The position numbers were made by a program, and so were the translations under genes. The notes under the pieces are model-generated. The model searched no databases. It was not told where the DNA came from and worked only from the letters and a program-made list of their open reading frames with translations. Below are positions 1 through 345 of a stretch of 345 nt of DNA, piece by piece. This DNA is from Escherichia coli (lineage in GTDB: Bacteria > Pseudomonadota > Gammaproteobacteria > Enterobacterales > Enterobacteriaceae), in assembly GCF_003334305.1 (NCBI RefSeq), contig NZ_QOWS01000083.1; one strand, given 5' to 3'. The first letter of the stretch is position 1; each line of letters starts with the position of its first letter.

Positions 1-183
1 TCACGCCTGAAGGGAAAGCTGCACGTTATCAGCAAGCGTTACACTCAGCGCATTGAGCGACATAATCTGAATCTGAGACAACATCTGGCAAGGCTGGGAC
101 GGAAGTTACTGTCGTTCTCAAAATCGGTGGAGTTGCATGACAAGGTCATCGGGCATTATCTGAACATAAAACACTATCAGTAA
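1..183 (+). CDS. insB: IS1 transposase InsB (InsAB' C-terminal part), 3' partial: last 60 codons plus stop
   Basis: Frame 1 is open from position 1 to TAA at 181-183. Manual translation: [60 protein letters not shown]. The ...[23 protein letters not shown] tail matches the IS1 InsB C-terminus as I recall it. The 5' end lies outside the window. Confidence 0.88.
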
Positions 184-198
184 GTTGGAGTCATTACC
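176..198 (+). repeat. IS1 terminal inverted repeat (about 23 bp), overlapping the insB stop codon
   Basis: ATCAGTAAGTTGGAGTCATTACC is the reverse complement of the IS1 end consensus GGTAATGACTCCAACTTA(T/C)TGAT. In IS1 the insB stop lies inside the terminal repeat (established knowledge). Exact repeat length is from memory. Confidence 0.75.
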
Positions 199-268
199 TC
201 CTCCCGAACTCAAAGCTATCATACAGATAATTACTGGTTAACCCTATATAGGGCATTTTAAAGTGTTG
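199..268. other. 70-bp AT-rich non-coding spacer between the IS1 end and the IS3 end; origin unidentified
   Basis: No ORF of meaningful length on either strand. Sequence TCCTCCCGAACTCAAAGCTATCATACAGATAATTACTGGTTAACCCTATATAGGGCATTTTAAAGTGTTG matches neither IS terminus as I recall them. Confidence 0.6.
236..253. repeat. Two overlapping perfect palindromes: GGTTAACC (236-243) and CCCTATATAGGG (242-253)
   Basis: Seen directly: GGTTAACC and CCCTATATAGGG each equal their own reverse complement. Function unknown; could be a protein-binding dyad or coincidental. Confidence 0.5.
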
Positions 269-307
269 TGATCTTACCCAGCAATAGTGGACACGCGGCT
301 AAGTGAG
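269..307 (+). repeat. IS3 left terminal inverted repeat (IRL), approximate extent
   Basis: IS3 has imperfect terminal inverted repeats of roughly 39-40 bp (established knowledge). The inner boundary cannot be confirmed without the right end, so the end coordinate is approximate. Confidence 0.55.
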
Positions 308-320
308 TAAACTCTCAGTC

Positions 321-328
321 AGAGGTGA
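321..328 (+). promoter_or_regulatory. Shine-Dalgarno / ribosome-binding site for IS3 orfA
   Basis: AGAGGTGA contains GAGG at 322-325, 8 nt upstream of the ATG at 334, which is suitable spacing. Confidence 0.55.
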
Positions 329-333
329 CTCAC

Positions 334-345
334 ATGACAAAAACA
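334..345 (+). CDS. insE: IS3 OrfA (transposase N-terminal DNA-binding subunit), 5' partial: first 4 codons only, M-T-K-T
   Basis: ATG ACA AAA ACA directly follows the SD. IS3 OrfA begins MTKT... as I recall, and the K-12 gene name for IS3 orfA is insE. Only 12 nt are inside the window, so the call rests on the IS3 context rather than on the ORF itself. Confidence 0.75.

Follow-up and report, generated by a model that had tools for sequence, protein, structure and literature searches.

A 70-bp spacer between IS1F and IS3 at the edge of the Escherichia coli ferric-citrate island is very probably a relic of a plasmid-type omptin gene

The ends of two insertion sequences (IS) face each other in a 345-nucleotide stretch of Escherichia coli DNA (contig NZ_QOWS01000083.1 of assembly GCF_003334305.1; henceforth 'the window', meaning the whole of this stretch), and the locus raises the question of what the 70 bp caught between them once were. 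A first-pass annotation had suggested that this spacer belongs to neither element and is what remains of the locus that the two had disrupted, and that its identity would therefore reveal the invaded locus. As shown in Table 1, the spacer is indeed foreign to both elements. Window positions 1-198 matched the end of the IS1F annotated in K-12 MG1655 at every position (198/198), and identity fell to 19/70 over the next 70 bases. The terminal 23 nt of this stretch, ATCAGTAAGTTGGAGTCATTACC, pair with GGTAATGCTGCCAACTTACTGAT at the opposite end of the element (87% complementary over 23 nt; positions 8431-8453 and 9176-9198 of the larger locus L001, the latter being window 176-198), and both the ~23-bp inverted repeats and the identity to a reference copy that mark a right end of IS1F are thus present. 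PGAP annotates the element as 'IS1-like element IS1F family transposase', a pseudogene with an internal stop. On the other side, inverted repeats of 39 nt with TG...CA ends (TGATC...GATCA; L001 9269-9307 with 10488-10526) delimit a 1,258-bp IS3 in L001, annotated as 'IS3-like element IS3 family transposase' with a programmed frameshift, and therefore set its start at window 269 and the left boundary at 268/269. The ~39-bp TG...CA repeats and the orfA/orfB programmed frameshift of an IS3 left end are accordingly both found here, and in a Shigella plasmid described below the same IS3 left end borders an unrelated flank.

Table 1. Features of the 345-nt window and their coordinates.
Feature	Position	Strand	Remarks
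IS1F, right-hand 198 bp (3' end of degenerate insAB' frame and right terminal inverted repeat)	1-198	+	
IS1F right terminal inverted repeat, ATCAGTAAGTTGGAGTCATTACC	176-198	+	
Omptin gene relic, QHFKMPYIGLTSNYLYDSFEFGR (nt 580-649 of a 954-nt gene)	199-268	-	nucleotide, BLASTP and NCBIfam matches
Overlapping palindromes GGTTAACC and CCCTATATAGGG	236-253	-	coding strand CCC TAT ATA GGG TTA ACC
20-aa ORF WP_113705808.1, MPYIGLTSNYLYDSFEFGRR	194-256	-	PGAP 'hypothetical protein'
IS3 left end	269-345	+	inverted repeat 269-307; leader hairpin 303-333; orfA ATG at 334

The nucleotide search that the first-pass annotation had proposed identified the spacer as a piece of an omptin gene. Sensitive BLASTN against plasmids returned 707 records, 696 of them with at least 80% query coverage, and most plasmid matches showed 95.7% identity over 70/70 nt (E = 3e-23) to genes annotated as 'omptin family outer membrane protease'. 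BLASTN against complete E. coli genomes found chromosomal ompT at ~76% identity to the spacer. The plasmid omptin gene runs on the strand opposite to the spacer match, and ungapped alignment placed the spacer in codon phase 0 both in the 954-nt genes (nt 580-649) and in the 951-nt chromosomal omptin of APEC O1 (nt 577-646). Two intact plasmid alleles, L003 and L008, each matched the spacer at 67/70 nt, compared to 49/70 nt for K-12 ompT and 50/70 nt for the APEC O1 chromosomal omptin. The relic extends from codon 194 to the first base of codon 217, comprising 23 in-frame codons, and the omptin homology ends exactly at both IS boundaries, identity collapsing just outside 199-268. Results at the protein level were the same: the minus strand of the window translates to QHFKMPYIGLTSNYLYDSFEFGRR followed by a stop, and the intact plasmid protein reads QHFKMPYIGLTGNYRYDSFEFGGS (in the longer stretch ...KQHFKMPYIGLTGNYRYDSFEFGGSF...). 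By BLASTP, 20/22 residues of the relic peptide were identical to omptin positions 194-215, and its 24 amino acids matched the NCBIfam models NF008224 (E = 7e-8) and NF008222 (E = 4e-7) at model positions 194-216, the intact plasmid protein itself scoring 651.7 bits against the omptin model NF008222 (cut-off 537). The spacer therefore has both properties expected of an omptin fragment, that is, significant similarity and a colinear match in phase with the parent frame, and nothing in the analysis contradicts this identification.

In marked contrast to a functional omptin, which is a protein of ~317 amino acids with a signal peptide, a beta-barrel and catalytic residues, the relic retains codons 194-217 only. 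The DNDEH motif of the intact protein, at 228-232, lies outside it, and the parts that are missing include the catalytic Asp/His pair, which we take to be positions 230/232 of the OmpT precursor. The remaining codons carry two to three amino-acid changes, G205S, G216R and, against one allele, R208L. The codon differences between the relic and the intact plasmid alleles were non-synonymous in 3/3 cases for one allele and 2/3 for the other, a pattern that fits decay, although so few differences do not allow a test. Since Gly216 was conserved in all four omptins compared (4/4), G216R is more likely to represent decay after inactivation. We therefore consider it very probable, judging from sequence comparison, that the spacer is a non-functional, mid-gene relic of a plasmid-borne omptin of the ArlC/pOmpT lineage, an outer-membrane aspartyl protease, and that the rest of the gene has been lost.

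The intact plasmid omptin found in our searches is carried by IncF plasmids, adjoins mig-14 and an SDR oxidoreductase gene, and is 73% identical to OmpT. Published ArlC/pOmpT is ~74% identical to OmpT and is encoded on IncF plasmids in the island PI-6 (PMC6854850, PMC11410778); its gene, the episomal ompT of IncF virulence plasmids, adjoins mig-14 (arlA) and the SDR oxidoreductase gene (arlB/hlyF) in PI-6 of pO83 (PMC6854850, PMC11410778). Because both the genomic neighbours and the identity to OmpT agree, we infer that the plasmid parent gene is arlC. The relic resembles this gene in matching two of its alleles at 67 of 70 nt, in register and in phase, and in carrying both palindromes exactly, and the Leu208 codon is common to the relic and L008; it differs in keeping 23 of 317 codons and in the amino-acid changes listed above. 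The K-12 ompT gene, which lies in the DLP12 prophage region between appY and envY, belongs to the same family and shares the gene position and the peptide KMPYIGLT with the relic. However, it lacks the palindromes (CCCTACATTGGCTTGACT instead) and differs at 21 of the 70 nt, and on these alignments chromosomal ompT of K-12 is clearly not the parent. The first-pass annotation was thus right that the identity of the spacer would name the invaded locus, namely an omptin gene of the plasmid ArlC/pOmpT type, and the same segment uninterrupted by the ISs, for which it had advised a search, exists in the form of the intact plasmid omptin genes.

The spacer was also correctly described as AT-rich, its G+C content being 37.1% compared to 44.3% for the window, and this composition follows from that of its source, as the plasmid mig-14/omptin island itself has a G+C content of 36.9%. 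Omptin fragments are commonplace, as a truncated and probably inactive plasmid copy of ompT reported next to arlC (PMC6854850), another such remnant in IS-rich mobile DNA, shows. By its description, that copy differs from the relic in lying on arlC plasmids and not at the fec island, and in belonging to the ompT lineage. A species scan, in which one genome per species was searched with a degenerate 51-nt pattern fitting the relic and the intact alleles, returned one contig and no E. coli, even though the pattern sits in ATCC 11775, and is uninformative on distribution in other species. The contig (L011, DEQI01000184.1, from the metagenome-assembled genome 'Planococcaceae bacterium UBA3370') is 5.9 kb long and 99.7% identical to the E. 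coli IncF island with mig-14, the SDR oxidoreductase gene and the omptin gene, and by this identity mis-binning or contamination almost certainly accounts for its presence in a Firmicute assembly.

We next consider the two palindromes, GGTTAACC at 236-243 and CCCTATATAGGG at 242-253, which lie where the first-pass annotation had placed them and overlap by two bases. A perfect 8-bp palindrome occurred at least once in 69% of dinucleotide-preserving shuffles of the window, and a perfect palindrome of at least 12 bp in 2.4% of shuffles of the spacer and 6.4% of those of the window; the 12-bp palindrome is therefore mildly unusual, but it was chosen after the fact. This mild rarity, together with the position of the dyad 16 bp from the end of IS3, is what speaks for an operator or other protein-binding dyad regulating a neighbour, for example the transposase of IS3 or read-through from IS1F. 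Such a function is nevertheless very improbable. On the coding strand the palindromes spell Pro-Tyr-Ile-Gly-Leu-Thr (PYIGLT), and both intact plasmid alleles carry these 18 bp unchanged within their open reading frames, where no IS is nearby. The chromosomal omptins of K-12 and APEC O1 encode the same PYIGLT peptide by CCCTACATTGGCTTGACT and CCCTATATTGGCCTGACG, respectively, and have no palindrome. Moreover, one Shigella plasmid (L005) has a relic truncated midway through the palindrome but an unaltered IS1F side, and K-12 has IS1F and the fec genes without any relic. Sequence comparison thus revealed neither conservation apart from coding constraint nor a regulatory location. Since the dyads are present in the plasmid genes and absent from chromosomal omptins encoding PYIGLT, they can be regarded as a by-product of AT-rich codon usage; in all likelihood, both the palindromes and the AT-richness were inherited from the parent coding sequence and the codons that it uses for PYIGLT, and would have no role at their present location. 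The codons of a conserved peptide can, in other words, by themselves give rise to a near-perfect palindrome in a spacer rich in A and T.

The relic also underlies an annotated gene. The open reading frame of WP_113705808.1 runs from an internal Met codon of the omptin frame to a TAA stop contributed by the terminal repeat of IS1F. Having an ATG and a stop, and being annotated in thousands of RefSeq genomes, it could be read as a genuine small-protein gene of 20 codons born of the rearrangement. This is hardly credible, because the frame is merely that of the omptin, entered at an internal Met and closed by the IS1 inverted repeat; no Shine-Dalgarno-like purine run was found in the 25 nt upstream of its ATG (CTGGGTAAGATCACAACACTTTAAA) and no promoter-like site on the minus strand in or near the spacer, and the peptide comes from within one beta-barrel region of the parent protein and would not be expected to fold or function by itself. 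On sequence grounds we regard the 20-aa 'hypothetical protein' of PGAP as an annotation artefact made from an omptin pseudogene fragment, and this corrects an annotation that has been propagated over thousands of RefSeq E. coli genomes.

Folding of 230-260 and of 199-268, on both strands and against shuffles, bears on a further suggestion of the first-pass annotation, that the dyad could form the tip of a terminator hairpin; an intrinsic terminator here would insulate the two ISs or end a transcript of the original locus. A stem of 4-5 bp is possible on either strand, but the RNA fold of the dyad amounted to -4.5 kcal/mol on the plus strand (z = -0.23) and -5.9 kcal/mol on the minus strand (z = -1.13), and none of these folds yielded a hairpin beyond shuffle expectation. 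A scan for promoter-like and terminator-like sites detected neither in 199-268 and no terminator-like site anywhere in the window; the two promoter-like sites that it returned are both inside IS1F, at 38-66 and 91-62. Similarly, the spacer had no Rfam match on either strand at E-values up to 1. As, moreover, the parent gene has this stem midway along its coding sequence, a terminator here is most implausible. The region is full of IS debris, with IS5, IS66 and more IS3-family remnants downstream, but the idea that the spacer is a terminal fragment of a third mobile element can be dismissed with near certainty, since over its 70 bp it follows the interior of a 954-nt protease gene colinearly and in phase, with 95.7% identity, and its peptide matches omptin protein models. 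Overall, the spacer is an ordinary gene relic at an IS-rich island boundary and involves no new mechanism or system.

How did the two elements come to enclose so small a part of the gene? Insertion of an IS3-family element duplicates 3 bp of its target. For IS1, target-site duplications of 8-9 bp are described (PMC12428005). In L001 neither element was flanked by a duplication, IS1F lying between the 9-bp sequences GGGGATTTC on the left and TCCTCCCGA on the right, and IS3 between TTG before its left repeat and ATA after its right repeat; the hallmark of simple insertion is thus missing for both. Searches of five fec-island loci with blastn and tblastn detected no omptin pieces beyond the 70-bp relic, and no reciprocal junctions, in which the missing omptin halves would lie beside an IS1 or IS3 end, were found. 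Because there are no target duplications at either IS and no other piece of the gene nearby, IS-mediated deletion or recombination is a more probable origin of the relic than a pair of simple insertions into an intact gene. The fragment would have been trimmed on each side by adjacent deletion mediated by the IS, or by recombination between IS copies.

The gene order at the window, fecEDCBARI-ykiE-IS1F-relic-IS3, places the relic at the boundary of the ferric-citrate uptake island, and shows what the ISs destroyed at the edge of that island. Among 5,426 complete E. coli genomes, 2,066 had the whole junction (at least 80% of the window) and 2,755 had the region upstream of fecI, so that the relic is present in roughly three quarters of those that are fec-positive. 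In 2,050 E. coli records the spacer was at least 99% identical, a uniformity that selection could explain, but the recent spread of a hitch-hiking island would lead one to expect it just as much. Some plasmids contain the relic as well, among them records from Salmonella, Shigella and Klebsiella. We are confident that it is carried passively with the fec island, on chromosomes and on some plasmids.

In published work the fecIRABCDE genes are part of the KpLE2 element, with IS911 and IS1 on either side (PMC3032704, PMC5379014), and IS1F is described as a divergent type with 73 mismatches and essentially no transposition (PMC12428005). The excerpted literature on fec, IS1 and IS1F describes the IS context of the island and contains no mention of an omptin remnant there. 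The IS1F at the fec end of KpLE2 in K-12 (PMC3032704, PMC5379014, PMC12428005) matches the window at 198/198 nt and has the same flank on the ykiE/fecI side. Like the IS1F of the window, the K-12 copy (L010 4473-5260, MG1655) has no 9-bp target duplication (GGGGATTTC compared to GACCATGTT). It differs in that its right flank is directly the yjhU region, with no relic and no IS3, and this difference in right flanks implies a further rearrangement adjacent to IS1F in one of the two lineages.

Through the origin of the relic, the past of the fec island is connected with the pool of AT-rich plasmid genes to which arlC/pOmpT belongs, and it possibly included a plasmid stage. We can tentatively suggest, though we consider it somewhat doubtful, that the variant of the island with IS1F, relic and IS3 was at one time linked to, or put together on, a virulence plasmid of the IncF type with an omptin gene of the arlC/pOmpT type, and that recombination at IS1F and IS3 shuttled fec between plasmids and chromosomes. 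If so, the relic would be a usable lineage marker for tracing the transfer of fec between plasmids and chromosomes. As a marker of island history it is of minor value. The significance of the locus is modest and consists in the correction of an annotation, in what it adds to the history of the fec island and in a caution on palindromes.

The variants of the relic observed in other loci fit continued erosion. On the chromosome of an E. coli O25b:H4 ST131 strain (L004 4060-4110) the relic lacks 3 bp at its junction with IS3, where AAAGTG abuts TGATC, compared to AAAGTGTTG abutting TGATC in the window, and contains one TGT unit and not two. The copy in the Shigella flexneri IncFIB plasmid NZ_CP058832.1 (L005 3040-3090) breaks off at window position 248/249, midway through the 12-bp palindrome, and a Salmonella plasmid copy has one substitution.

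Several of these loci also differ beyond the relic. In the ST131 locus, two substitutions mark the left end of IS3, which is interrupted after ~38 bp by another sequence, ACCGCCCCGGGTTTCCTGGAGAGTG, that appears to resemble the end of an IS629/IS1203-type element. In the Shigella plasmid, the sequence joining the cut relic begins with GGGCTCCGTTTGGGAAACGGAAAATATTGTACGTTAAG, which appears to resemble a Tn3-family 38-bp terminal repeat, and no inverted-repeat partner for this Tn3-like end was found in the locus; ~2.5 kb encoding an MBL-fold hydrolase, an HTH regulator and an ester cyclase follow, and then the left end of IS3 with a new flank (5520-5545). In the type strain ATCC 11775 (L002 9269-9605), what is left of the IS3 beside the relic is ~340 bp of degraded sequence that has lost an internal part and in which the start codon has changed (ATGACA to AAGACA); this change explains why matches stop at window position 342. 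At the same position L001 has its intact 1,258-bp IS3, and the downstream neighbourhood is unlike that in the type strain. Finally, the leader of IS3, just 5' of the orfA ATG, contains an inverted repeat, GTGAGTAAACTCT / AGAGGTGACTCAC, that folds at -12.6 kcal/mol (z = -1.8; 9 of 200 shuffles fold equally well). The hairpin sequesters a GAGG ribosome-binding site and extends to the orfA start codon, and could be a candidate translational brake on transcripts entering from outside the element.
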